Shown piece after piece: positions 7,056-56,017 of a stretch of 64,000 nucleotides of DNA. Each line of letters starts with the position of its first letter. Within the stretch, counting starts at the first letter, position 1. The translations under genes and the position numbers were made by a program. Origin of the DNA: Phyllobates terribilis (Eukaryota); assembly GCF_046119375.1 (NCBI RefSeq), contig NW_027362768.1, positions 23,622,001 to 23,686,000 of the forward strand, given 5' to 3'. The notes under the pieces are model-generated. The model did no database searches. It saw nothing but the letters and a program-made list of their open reading frames with translations, and had not been told where the DNA came from.

Positions 7056-7878
7056 TGTAGCGCCCCGAGGGTTCGGCCGCTACAGGGGTATTGCACCTCT
7101 GCCAGAGGTGTGATATTCCACTCCCGGGTAAGGATGGAGTATGGACCAGGGCTCAGGTAGCTGCATACAGCACACACACCCCATTTCCGAGGGACAGCTC
7201 AACAGTGCTCCCATTAGTACAGTAATGCAGGCACGACAGACCATGTCCCTGGCTGGAGTGGGGAGGGGGGAGGAAAACCCAGTGATGTAGGAGTAGGAGG
7301 GGACGGTTCCTGAGCGTAGACACGTTTACCCGCGCAGATCCGCGGCAGCTGGACAAAAGTTGGTCACTGGTGAGGCAGGCCAGAGAAAGGACAAAAAGGG
7401 GGTCCTGAGCCAGACTTCTGAACTGCCTGGGAGTTGACCGAGCCCCACAACTGGTGGACGCAGCACGGCTCGGACAGTCACTACCTGTACAGAAGTGACC
7501 CGGAGCACATGAACTGTGAGTAAAAGACATTGGATTGCAGTACGTTGTCTGTGTACTTTCTCGCTTCTCCAGCACTACCGGTACTGGGACTCCCTGCACC
7601 ATCACCCCCATCATCCATTGCACAACCCTGGGGCTACACTCTTCCCGTGGGGAGTTAAACAACCTCAGCTGCGTACACCATCAGCCTCAGGGGATTACCT
7701 TGCAGCGGCGGTTCATAATAACCGCAATCCACGGGTGGCGTAATCGGACAACATGAACAGCACATAGCAGACTACCATTGGCCTGACCACCCTGAGCCAC
7801 GGAACCGGGTTGCCACTACTACCCCCATCGTCTCCTGTTGCCCGGCTCCGAGTGCCCCACGGCCCAGGGGGCGAGTCA
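7056..7878 (+). mobile_element. Solo Gypsy LTR related to the LTRs of the CSD element at 21801
   Basis: TG...CA ends (TGTAGCG...GGGGGCGAGTCA) and a 4-bp TSD TATG on both sides. The first ~90 bp resemble the LTR at 21801. Confidence 0.92.
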
Positions 7879-17230: not shown

Positions 17231-18194
17231 GTGTGGCACCCCAGGGGGTCTGGTTTCTACAGTGGTAGTAATACCATGTCTGGGAGCAAAACAGGAGTTT
17301 CCTGGTCAGGAACACACTACTTGCAACACGTCCTGCTCCAGACCAGAAAAGGGGAGGATCCTGCCCTTTGTAACTGGATCTGGAGGCGGGGTTAGCCAGT
17401 TCAGTCAGTGTGAGGAGTCAGATAGGACACTAAGGAGCAAGGAGCTGAGGACTGGAGCTGTGCAGAGCTTGTCCTGGCCAGGGTATACAGAGAACCGGAC
17501 ACCGGAGTCCGAGGCTGTGGGACCCTTCAAGCCCAGCAGCAGATACCGCAAGGCAGGAGATTGCAGGTCTCCTGGCCCCCAGAAGCCCGGAGGCTCAGCC
17601 ACATGAAAGGACCAGTACCGCCACAGAGGAGCGAGGAATACACGGGATCCGAGTCGCCAGCCATACGGGTGAGCAGCATGTTACACTCAGGGACGTGGGC
17701 TACAACATGACTATAAGCGGGATAGCTAAAAGAGTACAGTCAGAACGGCAGGCCTACAACTCCACCTGGCCAGGGTAATTCTAGGATTGCTCCCAGACTT
17801 ACCAGGCCCTCATCTCTAGCAAGTACTCCTGTCGGGGTCTATATAATTGTCACCAGTAAAGACCTCAGGACTGCACTGCAAAGACTCCGTGTCATTACTA
17901 CTGATCCAGGTACTATCACCACCATCATCCTTACACGCTGCCCTGAAGCTACACTCTTCCTGTGGGGAGTTACACTACCTTGCTGCGCATATCACCAGCT
18001 TCAGCGGACTGCTCCGCAGCAGCGGTTACTAATAACTGCATTCCACAGGTGGCGTAGTCGGACTATACACATAGACTTCCCTGATTTGACCACCCTGGGT
18101 CACGGACCGGGTCGCCGCCACGGTGACTACTACCCCCAGCATCTACAAGGCCCGGCTCTGGGTATCCCCCACGGCCCAGGGGGCGCGTCAACTT

Positions 18195-18212
18195 TGGTGT
18201 AGTCGGCAGGAT
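18195..18212 (+). promoter_or_regulatory. Primer-binding site, tRNA-Ser (AGA-type acceptor)
   Basis: TGGTGTAGTCGGCAGGAT is complementary (one mismatch) to the vertebrate tRNA-Ser 3' end ...AUCCUGCCGACUACGCCA, recalled from memory. Confidence 0.85.
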
Positions 18213-18497
18213 TTCGTGCCCGCGACCACCGGGTACTGCGCGCCTTCACAGACTGTGTCGCATACCGTGGTGAAGATTTCCCGCCATCTGCTGGCGTTTT
18301 CCCGCCATTGTCTGCAATTTTCGGGTCGCCGCGCGAGAAGAAGAGTGGCGGAACCGCTGGAAACTCACGAAGTTCAAAGCCCCTCCCCGCGCGCTGACGC
18401 AACACCTGGTCCTGGAAGGAACCCCAGTGAGCGCTGACGTCAGACGCGTGCGACGCCAGGTCCTACAAGGAGACCATCGCCTGCGGAACTGCGGCCT

Positions 18498-19535
18498 ATG
18501 GAGGAAAAGAGAAGGAAGGTAGGCCACGGTTCACTATGGGGGAGGAAGACGCCGGATATGGAGGGAACTTCCACCGCCAGCGCGGCCGCTGCCGCAGTGA
18601 TGCCATTCACAATGCCCTATATCCCGGGAGCGGCGTGGCTGCCCCAGTACTTAGGAGAGTCGCACACCCTGAGTGACTTCAAAGAGAGACTAAGCAGCCT
18701 GTTTAAGGTATATCCCCTGTCCGAGGAGCAGAAAGTGAGCATCCTTATAGGCCAGTTAATCGGTGCAGCCCAGAGAGAAGTAAAATCCTGGTCAGCCAGA
18801 GAAAAAGGGACTGTAAAAGAGATACTGGCCTGCCTAAAGGACACTTTTGACACCCGCACCACCGCAGATATAAAAATGAAGTTCTATGGGTGCAAACAAC
18901 GGGCACAGGACAGTGTACGGGACTATGCTTTAAACCTGCAGGAGGCGCTGAGGGCCATCAGACAGGTAGACCCTGATAGTGTGCGTGATGCAAACAGACT
19001 GTTAACTGAACAATTTATTGAGGGTTTACTGTCCAGCGCCCACCGAACCCAGCTGCGCATCATGGCTCTGCAAAACCCTGACTTAGACTTTGCTCAGTTT
19101 AAGGACAGGGCCATCCAGGTGCTACGAGAACCAGCATCAAGTGGCGCTACAGCTCACCGCCGCCCGGCTATCACCTACCACCAGGAGGTGGCACCCTTTT
19201 CCCCAGAGCCTGTAGGAGCTGATGCACAGACTCTGGATAATGCCCCGTCAACAGACCTGCACCATCAGGTCCAAGAGCTAACTAAAAGTGTAGCAGCACT
19301 AACCAAAACTGTGCAGTCCTTGCAGGTGTCCCCCAAAGGAAGGATTCAGCTGGCTTCCAGTCCGGAGGACGTCCCGTGGTGCCGACAGAAGAGGATTCCA
19401 CCATCCAGAGGGAGGAACAGCGACCGCTACGACCAGGACGGACAACCCATCTGCCGCCGCTGCAACCAACCAGGACATTATGCAAGGTACTGTCATTTAA
19501 ACGAGCAAAACCTGGGGCAGTGGGCCAACCCCTAG
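18498..19535 (+). CDS. gag: Element B Gag (capsid plus CCHC nucleocapsid), open reading frame
   Basis: 345-aa ORF with FYGCKQRAQDSVRDYALNLQ, LLTEQFIEGL and CRRCNQPGHYARYC. Confidence 0.88.
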   Translation: MEEKRRKVGHGSLWGRKTPDMEGTSTASAAAAAVMPFTMPYIPGAAWLPQYLGESHTLSDFKERLSSLFKVYPLSEEQKVSILIGQLIGAAQREVKSWSAREKGTVKEILACLKDTFDTRTTADIKMKFYGCKQRAQDSVRDYALNLQEALRAIRQVDPDSVRDANRLLTEQFIEGLLSSAHRTQLRIMALQNPDLDFAQFKDRAIQVLREPASSGATAHRRPAITYHQEVAPFSPEPVGADAQTLDNAPSTDLHHQVQELTKSVAALTKTVQSLQVSPKGRIQLASSPEDVPWCRQKRIPPSRGRNSDRYDQDGQPICRRCNQPGHYARYCHLNEQNLGQWANP

Positions 19536-21800
19536 GCATAAGACCACCAGGCCCATCAAGCTGGCGAGACAAATATGTGGGAGGACGACCGGTCCTACCT
19601 GTCGTGCTGGACGGCTTTCCAATGAGCGCGTTGCTGGACACTGGATCCCAGGTGACCACCATCCCCTACATTCTTTTCAAACGGTACTGGACTGACTCTG
19701 ACATCACCCGCCGTCCAGATGAACATTTGAGCATTTATGCCAGCAATCGTCAGCCTGTACCTCAGGTGGGGTTCAAAGAAGTGACCATAAAGGTTGGCAA
19801 AGTCGAGCTGCCAGCACAAGGACTGATTATTGTCGACATTGATCGCCGAGAAAGTCATCCTATGATAACTTTAGGCACTAATGTCATTGAAAATTGACTT
19901 GCAGAAATAATTGTCTTATTGCAGCAGGTTGCGGAAACCGCCAGTTCCAGCCAGCAGCGCGTTCTACAAAGGAAGATCCGAGCCCTGATGAAAAGACAGC
20001 AGGTAGAACTGTCTGGTGGTGAAATTGGTAGTGTTAGGATGAGCGACCCATTCCCAATCGCCATGCCCCCAAAAAGTGAGATGATGATATGGTGCCGGGC
20101 AGCTATTGGTCTAAGGGGTAGAAATTACTAGACCTTGGTAGAGCCCGTCTACTCTGACAGTAGGTCCACCATTTTGACAGCCAGGGGGGTGATTGATGTC
20201 CGCCATGGGAGGGTACCCGTCCGTATCCTAAACATTGGGGAAAGAGAAGTCCATTTGCCCCGGTATGCCACCCTAGCCAAACTGTTCACTGTCAACCAGA
20301 ATTCTATAAAGACAGTGGAACCCTTGCCTCCATCCCAACAGGCTGAGGATAACTGCTTCAAGGGACAAATGGAGGACTGGTGCCAGAAGCTGCATGTGGG
20401 CACTGACTCCACCCATCCACATCAAAAACAAGGAGTATACAGGGTGGTCCAGGAGTATGAGAGGGTCTTCAGTAAACACCCACTCGACTTCGGGCTGGTA
20501 AAGGGGGTTCAACACCATATCCCCACGGGAGACCATCCACCCATTAAAGAAAGGTATCGGCCTGTACCTCCTGCACACTACCAAAATGCCAAAGGGATGT
20601 TGCGAGAAATGAAGGAGGCTGGGGTAATAAGAGACAGTTGTAGCCCCTGGGCAGCTCCATTAGTTCTTGTAAAGAAAAAGGATGGCACTATGAGAATGTG
20701 TGTAGACTACAGGAAAATCAACCGCATAACACACAAAGATGCATACCCGCTACCCAGGATAGAGGAGTCACTAGCTGCGTTAAAATCTGCTAACTATTTC
20801 TCTACTTTGGATCTTACTAGTGGGTATTGGCAGGTTCTTGTAGCAGAGACGGATAAGGAGAAAACCGCATTCACCACCCCGATGGGCCTCAGCGAGTTCA
20901 ACTGCATGCCATTCGGGCTCTGCAACGCCCCAGGTACCTTCCAGCGGTTGATGGAGTGCTGTCTGGGACATAAGAATTTCGAGACAGTCCTGCTGTACCT
21001 GGATGACGTCATTGTATACTCCCAGACGTATGAGGACCATCTGAAGCACCTGGCGGAAGTGTTTGATGCCCTGGCTGGCTTTGGTCTAAAGGTGAAGCCC
21101 TCAAAATGTCATCTGCTGAAGCCCAAGGTACAGTACCTGGGGCACGTGGTGAGCGCTGACGGTGTGGCTCCAGACCCCGATAAAATCACAGTAATCAAGG
21201 ACTGGCCAAGACCCTCCACCATAAAGGAAGTGCGGCAGTTCCTCGGGTTGGTAGGCTACTACCGAAGATTTATTCCAGGCTTCCCCAAGATGGCGGCACC
21301 CATGCAGGACATCCTGGTAGGCCAGTCCAGGAAGGCCAAAAACCAGAAGCCACCATTCAAATGGGACAAGCTGGAAGATGAGTCCTTCCACCAGCTAAAA
21401 ATGGCCCTCACGGGGGGACGAGATCCTGGCTTACCCTGATTATGGCCAGCCCTTCATCCTCCACACGGACGCGAGCAACGTGGGACTGGGAGCGGTGCTG
21501 TCCCAGATCCAGCAGGGCAGAGAACGGGTAATCGCTTATGCCAGCAGGAAGCTCCGGCCCACAGAAAGGAACCCTGAAAATTACAGCTCCTTCAAGCTAG
21601 AGTTCCTCGCAGTGGTATGAGCAGTGACAGAGCGCTTTAAACATTACCTCGCCTCTCCAAGTTCACCGTATTCACAGACAACAACCCGCTGACACACCTG
21701 GACACTGCGAAACTTGGTGGCCTGGAGCAGAGATGGATGGCCCGACTCTCCAATTATGAGTTCACCATCAAGTACCGGGCTGGGCGCAAGAATGCCAACG

Positions 21801-24800
21801 TGTAGCACCCTGAGGACTCGGCTGCTACAGGGGTATTGCACCTCGACCCAGAGGTGTGGTATTCCACTCCCGGGTAAGGATGGAGTGTGGAACTGAGCTT
21901 AGTAGGCTGCATGCACTACATACATCCCATTTCCGGGGGACAGAACAACGGTACTCCCACCAGTATATGTGCAGGTACGACAGCGTCTGTCCCTGGCTGG
22001 AGTGGGAGGGGGGTGGAACATCCCAGTAGTGTAGGGGCAGATAGGGGGAGTACTCTGGGTAAAGCTAGGAGCCCATTGGGTGCTGGTCACCTGGGTTCAC
22101 ACATAGAGGGAGTATATAAGGTGGGCACCATCTTAGAATAGGGTCTTTGGTCTTTAGTCAGAGAGAGGAGGAGCAGAGCAGAGGAGCTCAGCCAGGAGGG
22201 CTGACAGGGAGCTGTGGCTCCGGCTGGGCCCAGCTCCAGAGCAAAGCCTGCAGTGAAGAGAGAGAGGAGGAAGAAAGGCCCAGAGAAGCAGAGACAGAGG
22301 GAACCCTAAGATCCCAGAATCAGACCAGAAAGGGTGAAGGGTTGGCAGAAGAGGGCACCGGATCCCAAGCTGGCGGAGGCAGAAGTAACCCTTAACCAGG
22401 AACCGGAGGTCGTGGGCAAGTTTTGCCACGACCCTCACCATATCCACCAGGAAGGCACACCACGAGTAGGGCCAGGGAAGCCAGAGAAGGTTCAACCACT
22501 AAGAGGCCCGAGGGAGCTGGACAGAGGTGGATCCCTGGTGGGGACGGCCAGGAGAAAGAGAGTGAAAGGGAAGCTCAGGACCACGCTCCGGAACTGCCTG
22601 GGGGTTAGCCGAGTCCCGCACCTGTTGGACGCAGCACGGCTCGGGTGGTCACTCAAGGCCAGAGTGACTAAAGCAACATCAGTGAGTAAAAACCCTGAAA
22701 CTGCATCTCCTGACTCTGCCTCTCCTTCCTGCATCATCACAACCCCCATCATCCACACCTGCTGCCCTGAGGCCATACCCCTCCCGTTGGGGGTTATACC
22801 ATCACTGCTGCACATATACCACCGGCCTCAGCGGACTGCTCTGCAGCGGCGGCTTCAAAGCCGCACTCAACGGGTGGCGTAGTCGACACTTAAACAACAT
22901 CTACAAAGACTGCCACACACTTAGTTTGACACCCTGGGCACGGACCGGGTCACCTCCACAAGGACTACTACCCCCATACAGATCCGGCTCCGGGTATCCC
23001 TTGAACATGGCCCAGGGGGCGCGTCAACTTTGGCGTAGTCGGCAGGATAACGTGCCCGCAACCACCGGGTACTGCGTGCCTGAAGAAAAGTTCGTATTTA
23101 CCGTAAAAAGAAGTCTCCCGCCAATTCCGGAGGGTCCCCGCCATCGGACGCCATCTCGGATCGGTTCCCGCCGTTTGCCCGCCATCTGCAGTCTTTTCCC
23201 GCCATCCACAGAGTTTCCCGCCATTGGGAAGCGGTTCCCGCCATCTGAGAAGATTTCCCGCCCTGGCAGAGCGGACGCCATTATGGGCGTGCCAGAGGGT
23301 GGCAAGAGGCCACCTCCCATCGTGGGCCAGGACCAAGAATGGCGCCAAAAGCGGAAACCGCCCCCACCAGCAGAGACTGTGATGCTTGAGATGTCCATCA
23401 GCGTGAGGGGACTGCCCCTGGAACTGACAATCACCAAGTTGCCCCGGGACCACCCTCAGGATGGGCGGAGAGAGAACAAAAGAGAGAAGATGGGAGCAGC
23501 TTGGAGGAGTCTAGAGAGAACGCACCCGGAGATGGAGGGAGAGGCAGGCAGCACCGACCCAGTGGTCAGGAGCCTGTTGCAAGCGACTACCCCAGAAGGC
23601 CTGGTGGAGATCCTGGCGCAGCTCCCCAGAGATCGGGAGCATGCACGGACCGCACTGGAGGGCTTGGCTCAGAGGATGGCCCGAGTGCAGCGAGACGTAC
23701 TGGCCGCGTGGAGCAGAGAAATGGCCCAGCAGGCTGGAACCCGCCAGCAAAAGACACCGCCAGCAGCGAGGAGCACGCCTGCCCTTGAAGGAAGAGCAGG
23801 AGGGACGAAGGCCGGAGACGGCGCCGTGGAGGGAGCTGAAGTAACGGAGGCAGGTAATGGGGACGTCTACACCCCGTACCCGGAGGCCGAGAACCTGCCC
23901 CAGCTCCCCGTCGCAGAGCCCGAAATCCCATTCACTGTGCCCGTCGCTGCACCGCCACTGCTCCAAACTAGGCCTCAAGCGGCAGGAGCCGCGGCCGCGC
24001 TCCCCGTGACGTCACGCGCCTCAAATCAGAGTGCGACCAAACAGGAAGCGCCATCGGCCTGGTCACAGGGCAGAGTACCCCCGGGCGCAGCCGTCTCCAC
24101 AGTGCCCTTCACATTCAGAGTGCCCCCGGGCGCCGCGGCAATCATCGCGCCCGCAACCTCCATCATGCTACCCCTGGGAGAAGACTTGTTTACCCAGCAT
24201 ACTTGCCCGGATGGGCAGCCCTTTGTGTGGCCGCCGGAGTTCGTCAATCCCCGACTCCGGAGGGAACGGCCTCTGGATGAGCCCCTGATCCCGGCTCCGG
24301 CGCCCGCCAAGATCACCCCACTCTCGTTGGAGGAGGCGCAGTTCGCGTAGGACCCCACTGGAGAAGACCTCATCGGGTTCACCCAAGAGACCCGGGCGGC
24401 CGCAGCCCAGCGTGCAGAGTGCTGCCGACAGCAGTTAGAGGTCTTCAACAGAGAAAGGAGAGAGAGGCGGGTCCGCGAGGAGCGGCTGCAAATCCGGAGA
24501 GCAGAGCAGAAAATCCGGACCCGACGGAACCCCCGTGCAGCCCACGGTCCCCGTGCCACCGGGACTGTAATCAAATTCCAACTGCAGCACGGTTGGGGCT
24601 TCATCAGGGATCACAAAACCCCCGGTGACGTTTTTGTAACCCGCAGAGATGTCGAGTCTCACCTACCGGAGGGACACCGTGGTCGTGACCTGTACCTGGG
24701 TGACGAGGTCACCTTCACCCGGCACCAGTGTGCCAAAGGACCCTATGCCCTTCATGTACATCGCCTGACGGAAGAAGAGCTGCGGTGTGAGGAGGAACAA

Positions 24801-26595
24801 GAGGACCCGGACGGGTCTGAAGCCTACCCTCAGGAAGGAGCAGGAGGGCATCGTCACCATTAAGAGGTGAACTGAAACTGTATATAGTTACCCGTAAGGG
24901 TATATGCCATGCTGCTTAATTAAAATGAGTTCCCCGTTGGGACAAGTGTGAACTGTTCCAGTGTGTCCCATTTCCCCACAGGCTGAGGACTGTGAGCAGC
25001 CATCCCTTTTTCCCACTGGCCGAGGACTGAGAGCGGCCATATCCATTGTATATAGTTGCGCTTCTTAAAGCGCCCCCTACTGGTTTTATAGGAAACTGTT
25101 TTTTCTACCAGAGACTGTGGCACTTACCTGGTCACAATTTGCACAAGTGGCCAGAGGTCAAAAATGTTTTACATGAAAAGTTTTATTATGCTGAAAGAGT
25201 TAATATTATTTTATGATGTGTCTGTAACATTTTAAGAGAGAAGTACCTCCCATAAAGGGATGGGTTGAAAGTTATATTTTATATGTAAGTGCACTTTCAA
25301 AAATTTGTATGTTTTTGGATATTTTATTCTTTTACAGCCCGAGGACGTGCTGTGATTTACCAGGGGGGAATGTAGCACCCTGAGGACTCGGCTGCTACAG
25401 GGGTATTGCACCTCGACCCAGAGGTGTGGTATTCCACTCCCGGGTAAGGATGGAGTGTGGAACTGAGCTTAGTAGGCTGCATGCACTACATACATCCCAT
25501 TTCCGGGGGACAGAACAACGGTACTCCCACCAGTATATGTGCAGGTACGACAGCGTCTGTCCCTGGCTGGAGTGGGAGGGGGGTGGAACATCCCAGTAGT
25601 GTAGGGGCAGATAGGGGAGTACTGTGGGTAAAGCTAGGAGCCCATTGGGTGCTGGTCACCTGGGTTCACACATAGAGGGAGTATATAAGGTGGGCACCAT
25701 CTTAGAATAGGGTCTTTGGTCTTTAGTCAGAGAGAGGAGGAGCAGAGCAGAGGAGCTCAGCCAGGAGGGCTGACAGGGAGCTGTGGCTCCGGCTGGGCCC
25801 AGCTCCAGAGCAAAGCCTGCAGTGAAGAGAGAGAGGAGGAAGAAAGGCCCAGAGAAGCAGAGACAGAGGGAACCCTAAGATCCCAGAATCAGACCAGAAA
25901 GGGTGAAGGGTTGGCAGAAGAGGGCACCGGATCCCAAGCTGGCGGAGGCAGAAGTAACCCTTAACCAGGAACCGGAGGTCGTGGGCAAGTTTTGCCACGA
26001 CCCTCACCATATCCACCAGGAAGGCACACCACGAGTAGGGCCAGGGAAGCCAGAGAAGGTTCAACCACTAAGAGGCCCGAGGGAGCTGGACAGAGGTGGA
26101 TCCCTGGTGGGGACGGCCAGGAGAAAGAGAGTGAGAGGGAAGCTCAGGACCACGCTCCGGAACTGCCTGGGGGTTAGCCGAGTCCCGCACCTGGTGGACG
26201 CAGCACGGCTCGGGTGGTCACTCAAGGCCAGAGTGACTAAAACAACATCAGTGAGTAAAAACCCTGAAACTGCATCTCCTGACTCTGCCTCTCCTTCCTG
26301 CATCATCACAACCCCCATCATCCACACCTGCTGCCCTGAGGCCATACCACTCCCGTTGGGGGTTATACCATCACTGCTGCACATATACCACCGGCCTCAG
26401 CGGACTGCTCTGCAGCGGCGGCTTCAAAGCCGCACTCAACGGGTGGCGTAGTCGACACTTAAACAACATCTACAAAGACTGCCACACACTTAGTTTGACA
26501 CCCTGGGCACGGACCGGGTCACCGCCACAAGGACTACTACCCCCATACAGATCCGGCTCCGGGTATCCCTTGACCATGGCCCAGGGGGCGCGTCA
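21801..26595 (+). mobile_element. Non-autonomous LTR retroelement CSD-1 (no gag or pol; single ORF with a cold-shock domain)
   Basis: LTRs 21801-23026 and 25371-26595 differ by about 7 substitutions and one indel. TSD AACG, PBS TGGCGTAGTCGGCAGGAT (23031-23048), PPT CCAGGGGGGAA, 2344-bp interior. Confidence 0.95.
23283..24863 (+). pseudogene. About 526-codon ORF: helical N-domain, Pro/Ala linker, coiled coil, C-terminal cold-shock domain; one in-frame TAG at 24348
   Basis: The same frame after the TAG gives TGTVIKFQLQHGWGFIRDHKTPGDVFVTRRDVESHLPEGHRGRDLYLGDEVTFTRHQCAKGPYALHVHRL (about 24561-24767), with RNP1 GWGFI and RNP2 DVFV. Confidence 0.85.
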
Positions 26596-29500
26596 AACGC
26601 ACATGCACTATCCAGGATGCCTAACTTGCCAAATGGGGGAGAAGACCCAGAAGAACTGGAAGAGATAGAAATCCCCGCTTTCCACCGTCATGGGATAACT
26701 CAGTGCTCCCACTGTGTGAAAGACAGGTACTCTGCCACCAAAGAGGCCACGTTCAATCCCTTGCCCCACCACAGCTGGGCAGAAACACAAGACAGTGACC
26801 CGGCCGTCCACCTAGTCAAAGAGTTGCTGACACGAGCCGACTCATACCCTGACCCAGATGCTCCAGAGGAGACCAAACAGCTGTGGAAAGAGAAGAGTAA
26901 GCTGTTCATCTATGAAGGGAAGCTGTGTCGAAGAACTGTCAACTCCCGGACGCACGAGCTGGTCTGGCAGGTGGTAGTCCCGAGGCGGGACGCGTCTATG
27001 GTCTTGGAAGCGTACCACGATGGAGCAGGACACTTCGGATGGAAAAAGCTGGAAGTCCTGCTGCGTGATCGGTTCTATTGGGTTGGCATGAGAGGAACAG
27101 TCGAGAAGTGGTGTCGAGACTGCGGACCGTGCAACCTGAGAAGGAAAGACCGTGCCAGCCAGAAGGCCCATCATCACCAAGCAGCCACTCGAACTGGTAG
27201 CCCTAGACCATGTGAAGCTATCCCCGAGCAGGTCAGGCTATGTCTACGCTCTCACCATCGCAGACCACTACTCCCGGTTCCTGGTAGTAGTGCCAGTCAA
27301 GGACCAAACGGCTCAGACAGCAGCCAGAGCTTTCCAGCAGCACTTCTGCCGCCCGCATGGTTACCCAGAACGTGTGCTAACTGACCAAGGTCCTGCCTTC
27401 GAGGCAGAAGTATTCCAGGAGTTCTGCAACCTGTACGGCTGCAAGAAGATCAGGACAACGCCTTGTCACCCCCAGACCAACGGGATGTGTGAAAAGATGA
27501 ACCAGGTGGTGACAGACCTACTGAAGACATTGCCCCTGGAGGAACGCAGTCTGTGGCCAGAAAAGTTGCCAGACCTGGTGGACCTCTACAATCATATCCC
27601 AGTGAATTCCACCAACTGCACACCAGCGTACCTGTTGCGAGCGAGACCTGGTAAGCTGCCCATCGACCTGGATATGGGAGTTCTGACACCAGAGAACGCC
27701 TCACCAGATGCGGATTGGGACACTGAGTGGCAACAGCAATACCGTAAGGTACAGGAGAGTGTTGAAAGAAGTCTGTCTCAAGCAAGAGAAAGGCAAGAGA
27801 GGACTTACAATTAACATGCACCAGCTGTTCCCCTGTCACCTGGAGAGAAAGTCCTAAAGAGGAAGAGGCGACTTCACAAGTTGGATGACCAGTGGGAAAA
27901 AGAGCCGTACACCATTTTACCATCAAACCATGATAACACCAAAGTGTGCCTCATAAGTAAAGACGGAGGAGAGACCACAGCAACAGTTTCCAGAGACCAC
28001 CTGAAGAAATGTCCCGAGCAGCTACAGCATGCTGAAGAAGGCCAAGATATCCCTCAACCCGCAGAGGAAGTGGAAGAAATGGTCAGCACAGTACTCGGAG
28101 AATTTCCCCAGTCATGGACACAAGTGAATAATGCCATTGTTGTGCCAGTCCTTACATTTCTCCAACCAGCCCCTCAAGCACCTACAGAAGTCTCAGTAGA
28201 GTTGGAAGAACCATTGGCCCCGGAGACAGAAGATTCCTCACCAGCAGACCAGGAGAATCTACCCTCTGCTAGTAGCGAGCCTGTCGTACCCACGGTAAGC
28301 CAAAGGATCCGTAGGAAGCTGCCCAACCTACCAGTGACACCTCAAAATACCAGTAGTGCAGATCACACAGTGCCCACTACACCAGGGGTAGGGAAAGGGG
28401 ACCAGAGCAGAACACAGACAGACAGCGTGTTACGCAGGTCTACCAGAAGCACCAGAGGTCAAATTCCTGCTCGTTGGAGAATATAAAATGTAATGTATAT
28501 TGCAAATGTTTTATGTGTGTATTAATGTGTTTTCCCAGTTAACCGACAGGTTTCAAAGACTTTCAGGTTATGGACAATGGATAACCAAAAACTTTGTCTG
28601 TAAATAGTTGCACCTGGAAAGTGTCCCTTTGTGCCAGACCACAGAACAAAAACCCGTGGAGGTGGCTGAAGACGTGGTCCAACATCCGGATCATCAATGC
28701 CCTGTAGCCACCCCAGGGCCTCCGTGGAGGGTTTGGGATGGGTCCCTCAAACTACATCTTCGGTGAAATGGACACCTGGTTGCGGATGATACCGTGACCT
28801 ATAATGACTGTAAATATGTTCATGTATTGTATATTGTTACCTGTTATACTTTTGCAAGATATGTTCAGTCCCGGAGTACTGAAATTTACTAGGGGGGAAT
28901 GTGGCACCCCAGGGGGTGTGGTTGCCACAGTGGTAGTAATACCATGTCTGGGAGCAAAACAGGAGTTTCCTGGTCAGGAACACACTACATGCAACACCTC
29001 CTGCTCCAGACCAGAAAAGGGGAGGATCCTGCCCTTTATAACTGGATCTGGAGGCGGGGTTAGCCAGTTCAGTCAGTGTGAGGAGTCATAGAGGACACTA
29101 AGGAGCAAGGAGCTGAGGACTGGAGCTGTGCAGAGCTCGTCCTGGCCAGGGTATACAGAGAACCGGACACCGGAGTCCAAGGCTGTGGGACCCTTCAAGC
29201 CCAGCAGCAGATACCGCAAGACAGGAGATTGCAGGTCTCCTGGCCCCCAGAAGCCCGGAGGCTCAGCCACACGAAAGGACCAGTACCGCCACAGAGGAGC
29301 GAGGAATACACGGGATCCGAGTCGTCAGCCGTACGGGTGAGCAGCACGTTACACTCAGGGACGTGGGCTACAACACGACTATAAGCGAGATAGCCAAAAG
29401 AGTACAGTCAAAATGGCAGGCCTACAACTCCACCTGGCCAGGGTAATTCTAGGATTGCTCCCAGACTGACCAGGCCCTCATCCCTAGCATGTACTCCTGT

Positions 29501-31926
29501 CGGGGCCTATATAATTGTCACCAGTAAAGACCCCAGGACTGCACTGCAAAGACTCCGTGTCATTACTACTGATCCAGGTACTATCACCACCATCATCCTT
29601 ACACGCTGCCCTGAAGCTACACTCTTCCTGTGGGGAGTTACACTACCTTGCTGCGCATATCACCAGCTTCAGCGGACTGCTCCACAGCGGCGGTTACTAA
29701 TAACCGCATTCCACAGGTGGCATAGTCGGACTATACACATAGACTACCCTGGTTTGACCGCCCTGGGTCACGGACCGGGTCGCCGCCACGGTGACTACTA
29801 CCCCCAGCATCTACAAGGCCCGGCTCCGGGTATTCCCCACGGCCCAGGGGGCGCGTCATTTGGTTATACTGATACTTATATACAGTATCTCCTTTTTACC
29901 ATTTTGTTAATATGGATACTTCGACGGCAATACTGTGAATACTGTCTCTTTAAAATTTTGACCATAAGACAGATATCATTACTAAACATTGTGTTATGTT
30001 AATAATCTGTTGTTTTGTTTTTACTTTAGAACTGCGCTTAATACATCCCACTTCACGTTTATCTGTGTCCTGACACTATTTTCTAATAAAGTATGTTTTT
30101 CACTGTTGTATTCTTGCTAATATTCTATGTCATGTCACAATTCCCTTTTTCCACTTCCACAGATGCCTAAAAGTTTCTCCTAGCACTTATGCGGTATTTA
30201 CCGCTCATACTATTGTGGATTGCCGACATCCTTTTAGATACCTCTTCCATCCTGACGCCATGTTCCCATACCAACCAGGATGCATATGAACATCCGTAAA
30301 TCGCTTCTTATTGCACAAACTCCGGTCTCCACCCACAGTGATGTCACTTCACCATGACTACTGCGAAGCCTGCATTGCCCAGTCTTTTCTTTTCCCCACA
30401 CGCCCACAGTGAGTGATGACTTTTCCATGTCTACTGCGATGCTTGCAGGATTGTGACGCGCCCCCTGGGCCGTGGTGTTCTCGGCAGCCGGGCAGGTCCT
30501 GTATTGGGGTAGTCTCAGTGGCAGTGACCCGCTCCATGGCCCAGGGCGGTCAAATAAAGAACAGTCAATTGGGGAAATAAAGTTTTTGGGGATAATGTTC
30601 GTGACGCCACCCATGGTATGCGGCTATATGGGGCCAACGCTGCGGTGCAGATCCACTGGGGCTGATGGTGACGCAGAAGATAGTGCAGCTCTTCACGGGC
30701 AGAGCTAAGCTCCAGGGCAGTTTATGGTGATTTGAAAAGATAGATGACAGTGTAGTGCAGGGCTGAGGGCGCAGGTAATGACCAGACAACACAAGAATGG
30801 CGGTTTCCTCTACCTTTACTTGAGGCTTGACGGTGCACACCGGGACACTGGTAATAGCTGGTGATGGAGATCCGGGCGACCTAGAAGCAATTTGGGGATC
30901 CACCTCGCCAGGTGGAGTTGTAGGCCTTCCCTCTGCGCTATCCTCTTTGGCCCTGCTGCTTAAAGCCCTTTTCAGGTGTCGTTCCTTCGTGGCGGCGCCG
31001 GGCCCTAGTATGCTACTGAGCCGCCGGATGTTTGGTGGGGCCAGGAGACCTGCAGTCTCCTGCCCTACGGATTTAGCTGTCGGGACTTTAGTACCCGAAC
31101 AACCACAGGCTCCGGTGTCCTGTTTCTTCCGCTTTTCTCTGGGGCGAGCTTGGTCACAGCTCCTTTCCCCAGGTTCTCCTCGTCGCTCTTCTGTCTCCAA
31201 CTCCCTTTTCTCACTCCAACTGACTTTTCTAGACCCCGCCTCCAGGCTCCAGTTTAAAGGGGAAGCTCCCCTGAAACTGGGATAGAGCTCCCCCTTCCGG
31301 TCTGGGGCCAGGAAATGTGTTGGATGCTGGTGTTACCTGATAAGGGGACCCCTCCTTGCTTCTAGGCATGGCAACACCCCCTGTGAGGGAGGCAATGCCA
31401 ATGTGGCATCCGGACTCCTGGAGTGCCACATTCCCCCCTAGTTAAATTCAGTACTCCCGGACTGAGGACACCTTTAGAATTAAACAATAACGATATATAT
31501 TCCAAAAAAATTTACAAAGTCTCAAAAAGGCAAAAATTGCAGAACAACAAAAACCAAACCAAAATTGGGAGCAGTCATTGGGCACCTAGTCTTTACGCCA
31601 CTATCCAGAAATTGTCTTTTCCCGGGTACATGAAGGTTGGCTGGTGGGAACCGCCTCAACCCACTTCGTGTATCGTCCCTGGGCGTGGCTTCAGGGCACT
31701 CTGTCGGTGGGCCTGGTTTTCGGCCACGCCTGTGGTTTATTTTCAAGGCCAACAATTAACTTTACTCAACATTGTTCTGACCACACCTAGTCCTGTGGTC
31801 CATTTGTCCATAAATATAATAACTATATACACTCACGATTGCTTAAAAGTTCTTACAGGAAGTCTCTGTAGGCTCTCATGCTTAACGGTTGCAATTATAT
31901 ACTATACACTATTATCTTATTACACC

Positions 31927-34900
31927 TTAGTCCTTATAATGGGCAGGGATCTGAACTCTGGTACTATGGGTTGATCTACGCAGTACATTTATTGCCAATG
32001 ACCTACCTGGGTCTCTAGTGTCTACCGCTGGTGTGGTGGGAGCACTATGGACTACACTACAGTTAGTCTGACGTAACACTGGTAGGCTTGGTAGTCTTCT
32101 ACAACCTCTTTGACTCACCATGGGCATGACAGATTCACTGCTAGCAGGGGGTGGATTCATTTGTTTCTCTTCGGTTGTGGCATCTATTGCTGGGGCCGTC
32201 TGGTCTCTCAGCTGTTCTGGAGTCTCTGCGGCTTCCGGTAAAGCTACTTGGGGAAAGGTCAGGACAAGTACCACGATTGCTTGGTTCACCTGCGTCCAAG
32301 ACCGGGGAAATTCTCCAAGGATGGTTTGAACCATCTCTTCCACCTTTTCTGTGTGCTGGGGGCTGTTTTGTTCTTCCTCTTGGTGTCTCAATTGATCAGT
32401 GCATATCTTCATGTGGTCTCTTGAGTCTGCCGCTGAAGTCACTCCTCCATCTTTACTGATGAGGCATACCTTGGTGTTGTCGAAATTTGAAGGTAAGAAG
32501 ACGGTGTATGGCTCAACCTCCCACTGGTCATCTAATTTGTGAACTCGTCTCTTCCTTTTGAGTACCTGTTCTCCAGGTGATAAGGGAACTGCAAGTGCAT
32601 GCTGATTATAAGTTCTCTCCTGCCTCTGTCTTGCCTGGGACAAACTTCTCTCTACACATTCTTTCACCTTGCGGTATTGTTGCTGCCGCTCTGTATCCCA
32701 ATCTGCACCTGGTGATGTTGTCACAGGTGTTAAAACTCCCATGTCCAAGTCAATGGGTAACTTGCCAGGTCTTGCCCTCATCAGGTAGGCGGGTGTACAG
32801 TTGGTGGAGTTCACTGGGATGTGGTTATATAGGTCTACCAAATCCGGTAACTTCTCCGGCCACAGGCTACACTCTTCAAGGGGTAACGTCTTCAACAGGT
32901 CTATTACCACCTGGTTCATTTTCTCACACAACCCGTTGGTCTGGGGATGATACGGCATCGTCCTTATTTTCTTGCAGCCGTACAAGTTACTGAATTCCTG
33001 AAACACTTCTGCTTCAAAGGCTGGGCCTTGGTCGGTAAGCACTCGTTCAGGGTAACCGTGCGGGTGACAAAAGTGTTGTTGAAACGCTTTGGCTGCCGTC
33101 TTAGCCGTCTGTTCCTTCACTGGCACTACTACCAGGAACAGTGGTCTACTATGGTGAGAGCGTAGACATAGCCTGACCATCTTGGGGCTAGCTTCATGTG
33201 GTCCAAGACTGCCAATTCAAGTGGTTGTTTGGTGATTATGGGCTACAGGGGAGCCCTCTGGCTATCACAGTCTTTCCGTCTCAGGTTGCATGGACCACAT
33301 TCTCGACACTATCTCTCGATTGCTTTCCTCATGCCAACGCAGTTAAATCGCTCACGTAGCAGGACTTCCAACTTCTTCCACCCAAAGTGTCCTTCTCCAT
33401 CGTGGTACGCCTCTAAGATCATTGGCGCATCCTGCTTCGGGACTACCACCTGCCAGACCAGTTCGTGTGTCCAGGAGTTGATGCTTCTCTGACACAGCTT
33501 TCCCTCGTAGCTGAACAGCTTGCCTTTCTCCTTCCACAACTATTGGGTCTCCTGTGGAGCATCTGGACCAGGGTGTGAGTCAGCTTGTGTCAGCAACTCC
33601 TTTACTAGGTGGACAGCCGGGTCGCTATCCTGCGTCTCTGCCCATCCATGGTGGTGCAATGGGTTAAACGTGGCCTCTCTGTTGGCGGAGCGCTTGTTCC
33701 TCACACAGTGGGAGCCCTGGGTCACCCCGTGACAATGGAAAGCCGGTAGCTCCATCTCCTCCAGCTCTTCCAGGGTCTTCTCCCCCATCTGGCAAGTTGG
33801 GCATCCTGGACAGCACATTAGCATTAGCATTTTTATGCCCCGCCCGATACTTGATGGTAAACTCGTAGTTGGACAGCTGGGCCATCCATCTCTGCTCCAG
33901 CGCACCTAGCTTCGCCGTTTCAAGGTGGGTCAGCGGATTATTGTCTGTGAAAATTGTAAACCTTGCTGAAGCCAGGTAGTGTTTGATGTGCTCTGTTACA
34001 GCCCAGACTATGGCTAAAAACTCCAACTTGAAGTAACTATAGTTGTCGGGGTTCCTTTCCGTGGGACGGAGTTTCCTGCTGGCGTAGGCAATCACTCTCT
34101 CTCTACCCTGCTGTACCTGGGATAGCACCACTCCCAATCCCACGTTGCTGGCATCCGTATAGGGTATAAAGGGTTGGCCATAGTCGGGCTAGGCCAGGAC
34201 TTTCTCTCCCGTAAGAGCCACCTTCAGTCGAGTGAAGGATTCTTCTTCTTTTTTACTCCACTTGAACGGAGGATTCGAGTTCTTGGCCTTCTTGGACTGG
34301 CCCACTAAGAGGTCCTGCATGGGTGCCGCTATCTTGGTGAGACCCTTGGATGAATCCCCTGTAGTAGCCTACCAGCCCGAGGAACTGCCGCACTTCTTTG
34401 ATAGTGGAGGGTCTTGGCCAGTCCTTGATCAAGGTGACTTTTTCAGGGTCTGGTGCTACACCTTCGGTGCTTACCGCATGGCCTAGGTACTGCACCTTGG
34501 GTTTCAACAGGTGCCACTTGGACGGCTTTACTTTCAGGCCAAAACCGGATAAGGCCTCAAACACCTCAGCCATGTGCTCCAGGTGGTCTTCATATGTCTT
34601 TGAGTAGATGATTACGTCGTCCAGGTACAGCAGAACGGTTTCAAAGTTTTTGTGTCCTACGCAACACTCCATTAACCGCTGGAATGTTCCCGGGGCATTG
34701 CAGAGCCCGAATGGCATGCAGTTGAACTCGCAGAGGCCCATTGGTGTCGTAAACGTGGTCTTCTCTCTGTCCGCCTCTGCCACGGGAACCTGCCAGTACC
34801 CACTGGTGAGATCTAAAGTGGAGAAATAGTTAGCGGATCTCAGTGCAGCTAATGATTCCACAATTCTGGGTAATGGGTAGGCGTCCTTATGTGTAATGCG

Positions 34901-36139
34901 GTTAATCTGCCTATAATCAACACACATCCTCATTGTACCATCTCTCTTTCTAACGAGGACTAATGGAGCTGCCCAAGGGCTACAACTATCTCTGATCACC
35001 CAAGCCTCCTTCATCTCCCGTAACATTCCCTTGGCACATTGATAGTGAGCTGGAGGTACAGACTGGTACCTCTCTTTAATGGGCGGATGGTCTCCTGTGG
35101 GGATATGATGTTGGACCCCTTTTACCTGCCCAAAGTCTAGTGGGTGTTTGCTAAAGACTCGCTCATATTCTTGGACCACCCGGTACACCCCATGCAAAGG
35201 GGTGGAGTCAGTGCCTACTTGTAGCTTCTGACACCAATCCTCCATCTGACCCTTGGAGCCATTGTCCTCCGTCTGTTCGGACGGAGGCAAGGGTTCCACT
35301 GCCTTTATTGCATTGTTACTGACAGTCAGTGAACAGCTTAGCAAGGGTGGCATATCGCGGTAAATGGACCTCTTTCTCCCCACAATTCAGGATGAGTATC
35401 GGTAATCTCTCCTTGCGGACATTGACTACCCCTCTGGCCGTCAAGATGGTTGGCCTACTATCAGAGTACACGGGTTCTACCAGGGCCTGATAATCTTGAC
35501 CCCTGAGACCTATTGCTGCTCGACACCATATTAACATTTCACTCCTAGGGGGCATTGCAATGGGGAATGGATCACTCACTCTGACACTGCCGACTTCTCC
35601 ACCAGACAGCTCTACCTGTTGTCTCTGCATTAGGGCTTTGATCTCCTTCTGCAGAACTCGCTGCTGACTAGAACTGGCAGTGTCTGCGACCTGTTGCAAC
35701 AAAACAATAATTTCCCCAAGACAATTCTCTATCACATTGGTGTCTAAGGTTATCATAGGATGGCTTTCTCGGCGATCAATATCTACAATAATCAACCCTT
35801 GTGATGGCAATTCTACTCGGCCAACCTTTATGGTCACCTCTTTATACCCCTTTATACACCTCTTTATACATGAGGCCAGGGCTGACCATTGCTGGCATAG
35901 ATGTTAAAGTGTTCACCTGGACTGCGGGTAATGTCTGAATCAGCCCAGTATCGTTTAAAAAGGATATATGGCATCGTTGTCACCTGGGAACCAGTGTCCA
36001 GTAACGCGTTCATCGGGATGCCATCAAGCACGACAGGTAGGACCAGTCGTCCTCGCATATACTTGTCTCGCAAACTTTGTGGGCCTGGTCATCTTACTCC
36101 TGGGGGTTGACCCTCTGCCCCAGGGGTTGTTTGTTTAAA
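31927..36139 (-). pseudogene. pol: Element E pol, with multiple frameshifts
   Basis: [33 protein letters not shown] and GLCEKMN. Confidence 0.92.
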
Positions 36140-37079
36140 TCGCAGAATATTGCGAGGTGCCCCGCCTTTTGACAGCGGCGGCAGATGGGTTGTCCGTTCT
36201 GGTCGTAGCGATCGCTGTCTCTCCCTCTGGTCAGTGGAATTCTTCTCTGCTGTCGCCCCGGGACGTCATCTGGACTGGAAGCCAGCTGGATTCTTTCCTT
36301 TGGAGACACTTGCATGGCCTGCATGGTTTTGGTTAGTGTAGCCACACTTTTGGTCAGCTCCTGGACCTGAAGGCGTAGGTCTGCAGAGGGGTCATTATCT
36401 AGGGTCTGCGCGTGAGCCTCCACAGGTGCCGGGGAGAAGGACGCCACCCCCTGGTGGTATGTGATAGCTGGGCACCGGAGGAATGCAGTGCCACTTAGGG
36501 TTGATTCTCGCAGCACCCGGATGGCCCGGTCTTTAAATTGCGCAAAGTCCAGATCAGGGTTTGGCAGAGCCATAATGCGCAGCTGTGTCCGGTGAGCGTT
36601 AGACAGGAGCCCCTCGATAAACTGTTCGGTTAGCAATTTGTCCTCGTCTCGCACACTGTCGGTGTCTACCTGTTTAATGGCCCGCAGTACCTCCTGCAGG
36701 TTTTGAGCATAGTCTCGTACACTGCCTTTTGTTTGCAGCCATAAAACTTCATTTTAATCTCCGCTGCCGTGCGTGTGTCAAAGGTATCCTTTAACCTGGC
36801 CAGTATTTGCTTAACAGTGCTTTTGTCCCTGCCCGGCAAGGACTTCACCTCCCTCTGGGCTACACCGATTAGCTGGCCTATAAGGATGCTGACTTTTTGC
36901 TCCTCAGACAGGGGGTACACTTGGAACAAACTTCGCAGTCTCTCCTCAAATTCGCTCAGGGTGTGCGACTCCTCTGAGTACTGGGGCAACCACGCCGCCC
37001 CTGGAATATACGGCATGGATAAAGGCATTACAGTGGCGGCGGTCGCGCCCGCAGCTGGATCCTCTCCCAGGTTGGGCAT
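36094..37079 (-). pseudogene. gag: Element E gag, frameshifted
   Basis: MPYIPGAAWLPQYSEESHTL..., LLTEQFIEGLL and CRRCQKAGH, homologous to element B Gag. Confidence 0.88.
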
Positions 37080-38691
37080 CTTCCTCCCCCCCAGTGAACC
37101 TCAGACATGTCCTGACTCCTGGGTTTCGGCTGGCGCACCAATCTGCTGCTCTGCAGGCGAGAGGGATCGCTTACCCCGCGGTTCCCGATCGGGCCTCCTG
37201 CTTTCCCTCCGCTGACGTCAAATCACGTTATTATATAGCTCAGCAAAGTCTATGGCACACAACACCCAGTTATACCGGGCTAAAATACTGTTCGTGACGC
37301 CAAGTATGGCGCTCCTCCTGGGCCGTGGGGTACTTGGTCCTGTATTGGAGTAGTCTTGGTGATACTGACCCGGTCTGTGGCCCAGGGCGGTCAAATAAAG
37401 AACAGTCAATTGGAGAAATAAAGATTTGGGGATAATGTTGTGACGCCACCCGTGATATGCGGCTATATGGGGCCGCCGCTGTAGTGCAGATCCACTGGGG
37501 CTGATGGTGACGCAGCATAGATGGTTCAGCTCTCCACAGGCAGAGATAAGCTCCAGGACAGTATATGGTGATTTGAAAAGGTAGATGTTGTCGGCAGGGA
37601 CAGTGTAGTGCAGGGCTGAGGGCGCAGGTAATGACCAGACAACACAAGAATGGCGGTTTCCTCTACCTTTACTTGAGGCTTGACGGTGCAGACCAGGGCA
37701 CTGGTAATAGCTGGTGATGGAGATCCAGGCGGCCTAGAAGCAATTTGGGGATCCACCTCGCCAGGTGGAGTTGTAGGCCTTCCCTCTGCGCTATCCTCTT
37801 TGGCCCTGCTGCTTAAAGATATGCTGCGGCCCTCGTTCCTGAACAATCGTTTATTCCTCGCCGTATGGCAGGCAGCTCGAGCCCTTTTCAGGTGTTGCTC
37901 CTTCGTGGCGGCGCTGGGCCCTAGTATGCTACTGAGCCGCCCGATGTTTGGTGGGGTCAGGAGACCTGCAGTCTCCTGCCCTCCGGATTTAGCTGTCGGG
38001 ACTTTAGTACCCGAACAACCACGGACTCGGGTGTCCTGTTTCTTCTGCTTTTCTCTGGGGCGAGCTTGGTCACAGCTCCTTTCCCCAGGTTCTCCTCATC
38101 GCTCTCCTGTCTATAACTCCCTTTTCTCACTCCAACTGACTTGTCTAAACCCCGCGTCCAGGCTCCAGTTTAAAGAGGAAGCTCCCCTGAAACCGGGTTA
38201 GAGCTCCCCCTTCTGGTCTGGGGCCAGGAAATGTGTTGGATGCTGGTGTTACCTGATAAGGGGACCCCTCCTTGCTTCTAGGCATGGCATCACCCCCTGT
38301 GAGGCAGGCAATGCCAATGTGGCATCTGGACTCTTGGGGTGCCACAATTGCACCACCTGTTCCTCTCGTAACACGCCCTTCATTTAAGTGCTCACTGGCT
38401 AGTCTGCTGTCCTAAGGTGACACTCCTCCACGATGACGCATGAGCCCATCCTACTTACACCATGCCCTTATTGGTCCATCTTTTCTATTTAGTAATTGGT
38501 CTCTCTATTTAAACCAGGAAACTCCTATCTTACACTAGTGCTTACGCTCCTTATAGCAGTGGATACAGAGGAACAAGCTGGTATACTTTTGCACTGTTTC
38601 TGACCTTATGTTCCTGGGCAGTTTGGTAATTCATATTTTTTGTCTTGTTTCCTCATTCTGGGCTGTCCAACTGCCGATAGGGCATGGTATA

Positions 38692-49200: not shown

Positions 49201-49458
49201 TCCTCTGTGCCTTATAATTATTGGGTATCCAAGCTGGATACGTGGAATGAACTGGCTCTCTATGCCTTGGAGGTCCTGGCCTGCCCTGCCGCCAGCGTTT
49301 AATCAGAGCGGGTTTTTAGTGCCGCTGGTGGAATTATAACTGATAAGCGCATCCGCCTGTCAACTGAAAATGCTGACAGGCTGACTCTTATTAAAATGAA
49401 CAAGGGCTGGATTGGGCCAGACTTCTCAACACCACCGAATGATAGCAGCGTAACATAA
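46300..49458 (+). pseudogene. hAT transposase (ZBED1/4-like), disrupted
   Basis: BED finger WLSF..AICTICQ..TTSMIRHMKAKH, VHLTTDTWTS, VCDNGRNL, CLAHELNL, DVATRWNS and CPAASV*SERVFSAAG..RLSTENADRL. Confidence 0.92.
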
Positions 49459-55400: not shown

Positions 55401-56017
55401 CACCAAGAAGGTAACTATAGAGGACCCAGGGGGTGGAACAGACGTCGCCCGACAAGGCCCGCAGGTACCGGATTGGGACACTTGGTATGAGGTGCAGGGA
55501 AATGGCCAGGGAGAGAACACACAGAAGGGGGTCCCGCTAAGTACTCCGGAGATATCTGAGGGTCGACTGAATCCCTCCCTGAGTAAGCGCAGCACGACGA
55601 GGGAAGTTACACCGGTACCGGTAACTTGGATTGCAACAAGCGTGAGTAAAGACCCTGAGGACTGCACCCCACTGTCTCTGTGATTATTAACTGCGCCATC
55701 ATCCCTGCACTACAACGCCCAGCATCACCTACTACATCTACACTGCCCTGGAGCTAAGCTCTACCTTTGGAGAGCCACACCAGCTTTGCTGCACTAACAT
55801 CAGCTCCAGAGGACCTGCTCCGCAGCGGCGGCTCCACATAGCCGCATACCACAGGTGGCGTCACGAACTGTACATAAAAACTCTATTAAATTCCCCTGTA
55901 AATAATCCCCTTTTGAATGACCGCCCTGGGTCACGGACCGGGTTATCGCCACTGTGACATCTCCCGTAGCAACGAACGGCCTGGCACCGAGTACCCCACG
56001 GCCCAGGGGGCGCATCA
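52456..56017 (+). mobile_element. Non-autonomous LTR element CSD-2 (5' LTR and PBS missing; 3' LTR at 54800-56017)
   Basis: PPT CCAGGGGGGTA followed by TGTGGCG..., LTR end GGGGGCGCATCA, a CSD ORF upstream, and 3' UTR blocks shared with CSD-1 and element B. Confidence 0.85.
52855..54099 (+). pseudogene. About 414-codon homolog of the CSD-1 ORF; one in-frame TAA at 53926
   Basis: IVVKFDLDAGWGFVREPHTNRDVFVNRRDVEPHLQQGHPSRDL*PGDFVTFTRHKGERSWYALQLYRV, plus a shared LGQRMER..DAIAGWKKE N-terminal block. Confidence 0.85.

Follow-up and report, generated by a model that had tools for sequence, protein, structure and literature searches.

Large retrotransposon derivatives (LARDs) are non-autonomous long terminal repeat (LTR) retrotransposons whose layout resembles that of the element considered here, which occupies positions 21801-26595 of a 64,000-nucleotide stretch of the Phyllobates terribilis genome (contig NW_027362768.1, positions 23,622,001 to 23,686,000; hereafter 'the window') and whose sole gene encodes a protein ending in a cold-shock domain (CSD). 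TRIMs, the miniature retrotransposons with terminal repeats, and likewise Helenus, Ajax and Cassandra, share with it the two LTRs, a primer-binding site (PBS), a polypurine tract (PPT), a target-site duplication (TSD) and mobilization in trans, as described in PMC10886601. By that description TRIMs are below 1 kb and encode no mobilization proteins, whereas CSD elements measure 4.4-5 kb and encode a strongly constrained protein; the window element, 4.8 kb long with a constrained open reading frame (ORF), thus falls outside a class delimited by a size below approximately 1 kb and by the lack of coding capacity.

Other described systems share single traits with the CSD elements. Xenopus 1a11 and xretpos are frog LTR elements, expressed in embryos, with an ORF but without pol (PMC4585706). 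The description given there nevertheless sets 1a11 apart, as it speaks of a Gag-like protein and of tens to hundreds of copies and, as far as it goes, mentions no CSD; the CSD ORF, for its part, has neither Gag homology nor a capsid fold. An accessory or captured gene is maintained by an LTR element in the reports on Cer1 CERV, which handles genomic RNA (PMC10309623), and on bdelloid ORF3s; TelKA2n is reported as non-autonomous and as keeping an env-like ORF, and the plant aORFs and an orchid demethylase domain are likewise presented as additional ORFs of LTR retrotransposons. In such elements the extra gene mostly stands beside gag-pol, whereas here the CSD gene stands alone and is absent from the fetched helpers. 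LINE-1 ORF1p, which combines a helix with an RNA-binding domain, has been proposed to be a cis-preferring RNA coat and chaperone; the analogy is functional only, its fold and element class being unrelated to those of the CSD elements. As detailed below, the latter form a high-copy, non-autonomous group of Ty3/gypsy type in which one CSD gene replaces gag-pol.

A complete LTR element with a single gene

All features of the element lie on the forward strand, between two copies of the TSD AACG (21797-21800 and 26596-26599). The 5' LTR (21801-23026; 1226 bp, TG...CA) carries a TATA-like motif at 22113 and is 99.4% identical to the 3' LTR (25371-26595; TG...CA), the two being separated by seven substitutions and one 1-bp indel. 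The PBS (TGGCGTAGTCGGCAGGAT; 23031-23048) is complementary to the 3' end of tRNA-Ser(AGA/TGA) plus CCA; the tRNA-Ser pattern occurs at 36 places in the genome, and ARAGORN called tRNA-Ser in four of 14 fetched loci and in none of three others. A PPT (25357-25370) stands just 5' of the 3' LTR. Zero matches to gag, pol or env were found within 21801-26595, and the insertion point is the RNase H end of the pol gene, which it splits, of an older and broken element, Gypsy B (17232-29858, forward strand; gag-protease-reverse transcriptase-RNase H-integrase, LTRs 96.3% identical, TSD TTTG). A sequence-only reading of this DNA had proposed a complete, young and non-autonomous element with near-identical LTRs, TSD, tRNA-Ser PBS and PPT, devoid of gag, pol and env, inserted into the pol of Gypsy B and carrying a CSD as its only cargo; all of this was recovered, with exact coordinates.

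The sole ORF (23283-24863; 526 codons) follows a leader array of seven CGCCAT motifs (23139-23281; approximately 0.2 expected from a Markov shuffle), a candidate packaging or regulatory signal that is shared with the helper family H discussed below. The frame comprises a conserved N-terminal helical segment (23559-23747, low-confidence model), a conserved GEDL(I/M)GF motif, a predicted 48-residue charged alpha-helix (24384-24527) running into the CSD (24549-24764; oligonucleotide/oligosaccharide-binding, OB, fold) and an acidic tail (to 24860; net charge -9) that is less conserved than the CSD. The expected single ORF of about 526 codons is indeed the only frame and ends in the CSD, but in the window copy an in-frame TAG (24348-24350) interrupts it upstream of that domain, so that this copy would make no CSD without read-through. 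Among 41 copies picked by similarity, the window's included, 36 are open from a start methionine, conserved across families A and B, through the CSD.

High copy number and at least three families

The 10.57-Gb genome holds 23,400 matches to a degenerate 29-nt pattern for DVFV(T/N/K)RRDVE, against none for the reversed control, a count that omits mutated copies and includes tandem and segmental duplicates; a one-off capture of a host fragment, envisaged by the sequence-only reading as its possible undoing, is thus not what was found. At about 4.8 kb each, CSD elements would make up roughly 1% of the 10.6-Gb genome. In each of the 40 fetched close copies a 5' LTR is followed by a colinear interior of approximately 2.3 kb. 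With the window copy added, the 41 sequences comprise 34 complete LTR pairs, four interrupted pairs and three unparsed cases; exact TSDs at different sites flank 29 of the 34 complete pairs, whose median LTR divergence is 0.45%. To reduce selection bias, 20 motif matches spread over the first 34 Mb of contig C1 were also taken. Sixteen are complete elements (interiors 2.0-2.6 kb, LTRs 97.3-100% identical), none of these 16 carries gag or pol, and 13 of the 20 keep the full ORF, in a sample for which an intact motif was required.

The sequence-only reading had supposed one family only, whereas the CSD gene is carried by at least three, with different LTRs or primers. Family A, to which the window copy belongs, consists of several subfamilies, some copies having identical LTRs; the LTRs of subfamily A1 are 79-99% identical to the window copy while the CSD barely changes. 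Family B is older (LTR pairs approximately 92-98% identical), carries TGGCGTCACGAACAGGAT as its PBS and has part of its 3' untranslated region in common with Gypsy B; a second CSD element of the window, 5'-truncated and broken, belongs to it (52822-56018, forward strand; 3' LTR approximately 54800-56018). In family C the LTR, 1 kb long (TGTAAT...TTACA), is unrelated, the N-terminus is different and the CSD region is 35-39% identical; its motif matches number 401. Gag and pol were found in neither B nor C.

Divergent CSD ORFs in low copy number (L151, L159, L168) may represent old families or domesticated copies. The first of them (G000:C4:791.48-791.52 Mb) keeps the RNP2 histidine and shares LTR-like flanks with L168 (C9:374.39 Mb), which is 73% identical to a protein of Ranitomeya imitator. 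Shortened derivatives were also seen, with LTRs and CSD only, new upstream sequence and an interior of approximately 1.1-1.4 kb (L110, L123, L125), as were 3.6-kb LTR-ORF-LTR tandem arrays at other loci. Near-identical family A copies recur every 150-350 kb at G000:C12:56.8-58.7 Mb and on C300 and C313, a spacing that suggests large tandem duplication. Nesting is frequent, CSD elements lying within or next to one another and gypsy elements (L035, L045, L050, L099).

Purifying selection on the encoded protein

Pairwise Nei-Gojobori comparisons drew on 72 natural copies whose frames run open for 430 codons or more; loci that were broken or duplicated had been excluded. For the CSD, the ratio of non-synonymous to synonymous substitutions (dN/dS) is 0.09 between A1 and A2 (dS 1.07), 0.08 between A1 and A3 (dS 0.81), 0.07 between A2 and A3, 0.09 within family B and 0.15 in family C (12 copies). 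The helix before the CSD gives 0.06-0.13 between A subfamilies; the N-terminal helix gives 0.19-0.26, or 0.19-0.36 counting comparisons within and between A subfamilies, and the linker 0.42-0.52. Eight single pairs yielded proportions of differences (pN/pS) of 0.09-0.17 for the CSD, with bootstrap upper bounds of at most 0.32 and with differences concentrated at third positions, and the position sample a dN/dS of 0.11 once the selecting motif was removed (13 of 19 frames used). These values lie far below the ratio near 1 that the sequence-only reading had named as contrary evidence; indeed, CSD ratios of 0.07-0.09 at a dS of 0.8-1.1 show that the protein is functional. A longer protein beginning at an ATG inside the LTR was rejected, the upstream leader frame being often broken and having a dN/dS of 0.97 within A1 and 0.61 for A1 against A2/A3.

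Stops fall within the match in approximately 60 of 150 copies of the older family B (hand count) versus four of 150 young A copies, which suggests that constraint acts on the replicating lineages. Judging from these sequences, selection would thus operate during element replication and not on inserted copies.

Fold and affinity of the cold-shock domain

The CSD call made in the sequence-only reading is borne out by Pfam and by structure prediction, and the absence of a CSD or OB-fold match, which would have spoken against it, was not observed. PF00313 scores 35.3 bits on the domain, against a gathering cut-off of 27, and an AlphaFold model built from 18 sequences for the last 171 residues of a close copy's protein (mean pLDDT 78.5) shows a 48-residue helix, a five-stranded OB barrel (block pLDDT 85-94 over the CSD) and a short helix. 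Foldseek matched the modelled CSD to CspA (E 3.7e-7) and YBX1 (E 2.8e-6) at approximately 30% identity, and also to the CSDs of CARHSP1, Unr and Lin28. The full-length model is largely disordered (mean pLDDT 49, shallow alignment), with two helices and the CSD but no capsid fold. Pfam offered no convincing family for the N-terminal helical segment, and ESM Atlas matches to a homolog were all below 0.9 and serve as leads only.

The domain shares the fold and the RNP1 and RNP2 motifs with YBX1, YBX2 and CspA. It retains the RNP1 W/F and the RNP2 F, whereas families A-C have other residues in place of the canonical Trp and of the His-Phe that follows RNP2, which act in base stacking; aligning the domain with CspA and YBX1 shows this replacement as well as a longer, Y-box-like loop, both pointed out in the sequence-only reading. 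The Y-box affinity suggested there is supported by a broad profile of all families, for which YBX1 and YBX2 are the best matches (52-54 bits, 54 for YBX1), ahead of bacterial Csp proteins (at most 42; CspA 40-42), CARHSP1 (21.5), LIN28 (20) and CSDE1 (17; structures 14-17). From Y-box proteins the element protein departs, however, both in CSD identity, which is about 30%, and in domain order, the CSD standing at the C-terminus after a long charged helix; its gene is also intronless and lies in a mobile element. Moreover, YBX1 and CspA tie under a narrower A/B profile, and a CSD tree with host outgroups has long branches and weak support, so that a Y-box derivation of the gene is likely only. 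An origin from CARHSP1/CSDC2 was rejected on its score, 21.5 bits versus 54 for YBX1. CSDE1 retrocopies on C1 were likewise discarded as donor, being processed and LTR-free. Intronless copies there (L131-L132, G000:C1:734.43-734.45 Mb), which we take from their sequence to be CSDE1/UNR-like, are interrupted by non-LTR elements, with exon-split matches at C2:702.8 Mb.

Candidate helper elements

The sequence-only reading had named B-type elements as probable helpers. The LTR end, PBS and leader are indeed shared with gag-pol elements, but Gypsy B itself appears too old and a young family, H, fits better. Twenty relatives of Gypsy B, fetched from among the best 150 matches, are decayed, with LTR pairs 85-98% identical, mostly 94-98%, where alignable; since the nearest relatives are this old, Gypsy B is unlikely to be the current helper. 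By comparison, 123 of 123 scored matches to the Gag of family H stand at 100% identity, gag (351 codons) and pol (1398) are open in ten of 12 copies, and the LTRs are 98.9-100% identical in all 12. Families H and A have in common the LTR end, the spacer, the PBS, a near-identical leader of approximately 60 nt and a similar PPT, and they are 82% identical over 255 bp in U5 and the 3' part of the LTR; no alignment to the H LTR was found for the first approximately 940 bp of the family A LTR. On these sequence likenesses, H is likely to be the current helper of family A. A CSD was found in none of the 12 fetched H copies, nor between pol and the 3' LTR in any of the 20 Gypsy B relatives, and the idea that autonomous elements carry the CSD gene as a third ORF was therefore dropped. 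A second gag-pol element of the window (30453-38346, reverse strand), 77-78% identical to Gypsy B, has the family B PBS, and its lineage is a candidate helper of family B.

The LTR itself contains a 10-13 nt copy of the PBS, 130-170 nt short of its end, and this copy changes together with the PBS from family to family. Family A shares the version TGGCGTAGTC with helper H and Gypsy B, whereas family B and the reverse-strand gypsy element have TGGCGTCAC; none was found in family C. In the window element it lies at 22875-22885 (forward strand), with a second copy at 26444, and others lie at 18050 and 55856. It is possibly a second primer contact or a tRNA-fragment decoy.

A possible role in element replication

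A dN/dS of approximately 0.1 in an element unable to replicate alone implies that the ORF must aid its own copying, most simply in cis. The reading that we favour, and to which we give about an even chance, is that the CSD protein binds its own RNA and helps it to compete for the helper particle, the copying being done by a young autonomous family. Under this reading, the element's own U3 would drive a transcript, translated from the conserved methionine, and the newly made protein would bind its source RNA through the CSD, with the helices providing a spacer or surfaces for interaction. Coating could then stabilize the RNA, direct it to helper Gag or assist it, as a chaperone would, during tRNA-Ser priming and reverse transcription; the helper integrase would insert the element with a 4-bp TSD, and inserted copies would decay thereafter. 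Retrotransposition is indicated by exact TSDs and LTR pairs up to 100% identical, and host YB-1 is reported to support retroviral RNA metabolism and early steps (PMC6040738). Contigs of four sequencing runs, two of them guessed to be RNA, cover 28-30 of 30 bins of the interior; having no control, they speak neither for nor against expression.

Several points weigh against this reading. The cis preference of the protein is deduced from population logic only, and the ratios quoted above come from pairs that are not independent and from a simple counting method. With the canonical Trp and His-Phe replaced, affinity or ligand may differ. The break of the window copy recurs at the same position in another copy, L031, whose LTR is different, so that broken copies may sometimes move, unless the break arose twice. 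Finally, the CGCCAT array (median copies: eight in H, six in A1, four in A2/A3, one in B, none in C) was rejected as a universal CSD target, because it is present in the CSD-less H and absent from families B and C.

Alternatively, the protein might be a self-encoded activator or anti-silencer that binds Y-box-like DNA or nascent RNA at its own U3 and sustains expression. CSDs bind single-stranded DNA besides RNA (according to PDB titles), and such a role would suit the LTR portion that cannot be aligned to the helper's, the fast divergence of A1 LTRs beside a nearly constant CSD, and the acidic tail; yet a diffusible factor would serve broken copies too, which weakens selection unless its specificity evolves in step, the CSD hardly varies between copies whose LTRs differ, and the tail is less conserved than the domain. 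We consider this explanation unlikely. Slightly lower still we place that of a trans-acting accessory gene, split onto a satellite, which exports, stores (as in oocyte masking) or shields the RNA of both element and helper from small-RNA silencing: non-coding cheaters should then take over, whereas full ORFs persist in most of the position sample (13 of 20, an intact motif being required), even though the CSD is missing from H and from the Gypsy B relatives and both partners show bursts of near-identical copies. Accessory RNA-handling proteins of LTR elements do exist, CERV being the instance reported in PMC10309623.

That the protein is a diverged Gag with its zinc knuckle replaced by a CSD is very improbable and already largely refuted, since HHalign of the ORF against the Gag of helper H shows no similarity (probability 0.1%) and the full-length model has two helices and a CSD in disorder where a capsid would be expected; its place where gag would lie, after the same leader, and a terminal nucleic-acid-binding domain are what such a protein would share with Gag. 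Least credible is the view that the cargo is a host fragment carried along passively, or a host gene that became domesticated. LTR elements do capture host mRNA by template switching in the account of PMC5131818, and a few low-copy divergent CSD ORFs (L151, L168) would fit, but for the high-copy families this explanation is refuted by a dN/dS of approximately 0.1 at a dS of about 1 between active lineages and by tens of thousands of dispersed copies that decay after insertion.

The favoured reading, own-RNA binding in cis, can be extended to a satellite class of LTR elements, a proposal that we regard as tentative and somewhat less probable than not. An ancestor would have swapped gag-pol for a captured Y-box CSD, acting in cis as an adaptor that outcompetes the helper for particles, and this gene would have persisted through at least three LTR or primer shells and several helper lineages in dendrobatoid frogs, to reach approximately 1% of a 10.6-Gb genome.

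Range and previous descriptions

An exhaustive hidden Markov model search over 1.84 billion representative proteins placed five single-CSD proteins among its top eight matches, all from dendrobatoid frogs and all uncharacterized or unnamed: one each from Phyllobates terribilis, which may derive from the same genome and is not independent, Ranitomeya variabilis and R. imitator, and two from Anomaloglossus baeobatrachus, of which one aligns over helix and CSD (probability 99.9%). The other 145 matches listed have at least two matched stretches each and crowd out weaker relatives, so that a range restricted to dendrobatoids cannot be concluded. In metagenome contigs, none of 277 pattern matches was confirmed, and word-index protein searches returned one, two and zero matches.

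The sequence-only reading knew of no LTR family of this kind, and we likewise found no description of CSD-encoding LTR elements in the full-text literature, a scope that leaves aside Repbase, Dfam, subscription journals and supplementary repeat libraries; in such resources these families may already be listed as unclassified repeats. Where the cold-shock term appears in PMC11445987 and PMC13583293, it refers, in the text concerned, to host genes.

Other features of the window

A solo-LTR-like sequence at 7056-7878 is 67-81% similar to the element LTR. A decayed DNA transposon with a BED zinc finger lies at 46584-49302 and is presumably hAT-like.

Significance

Non-autonomous LTR elements are usually non-coding or carry gag or env remnants, whereas here the sole gene is a likely host-derived nucleic-acid-binding domain. 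This points to a replication step at which a parasite of a parasite profits from its own RNA-handling protein, and opens the questions of Y-box-type proteins in LTR element replication and of satellite competition for the helper particle. Classification pipelines based on gag and pol would likely miss CSD elements, and gene annotation appears to label their single-CSD proteins as uncharacterized host genes. Bursts of transposable elements have been reported in poison frogs (PMC12822217), and the CSD elements provide a concrete contributor to the expansion of poison-frog genomes.

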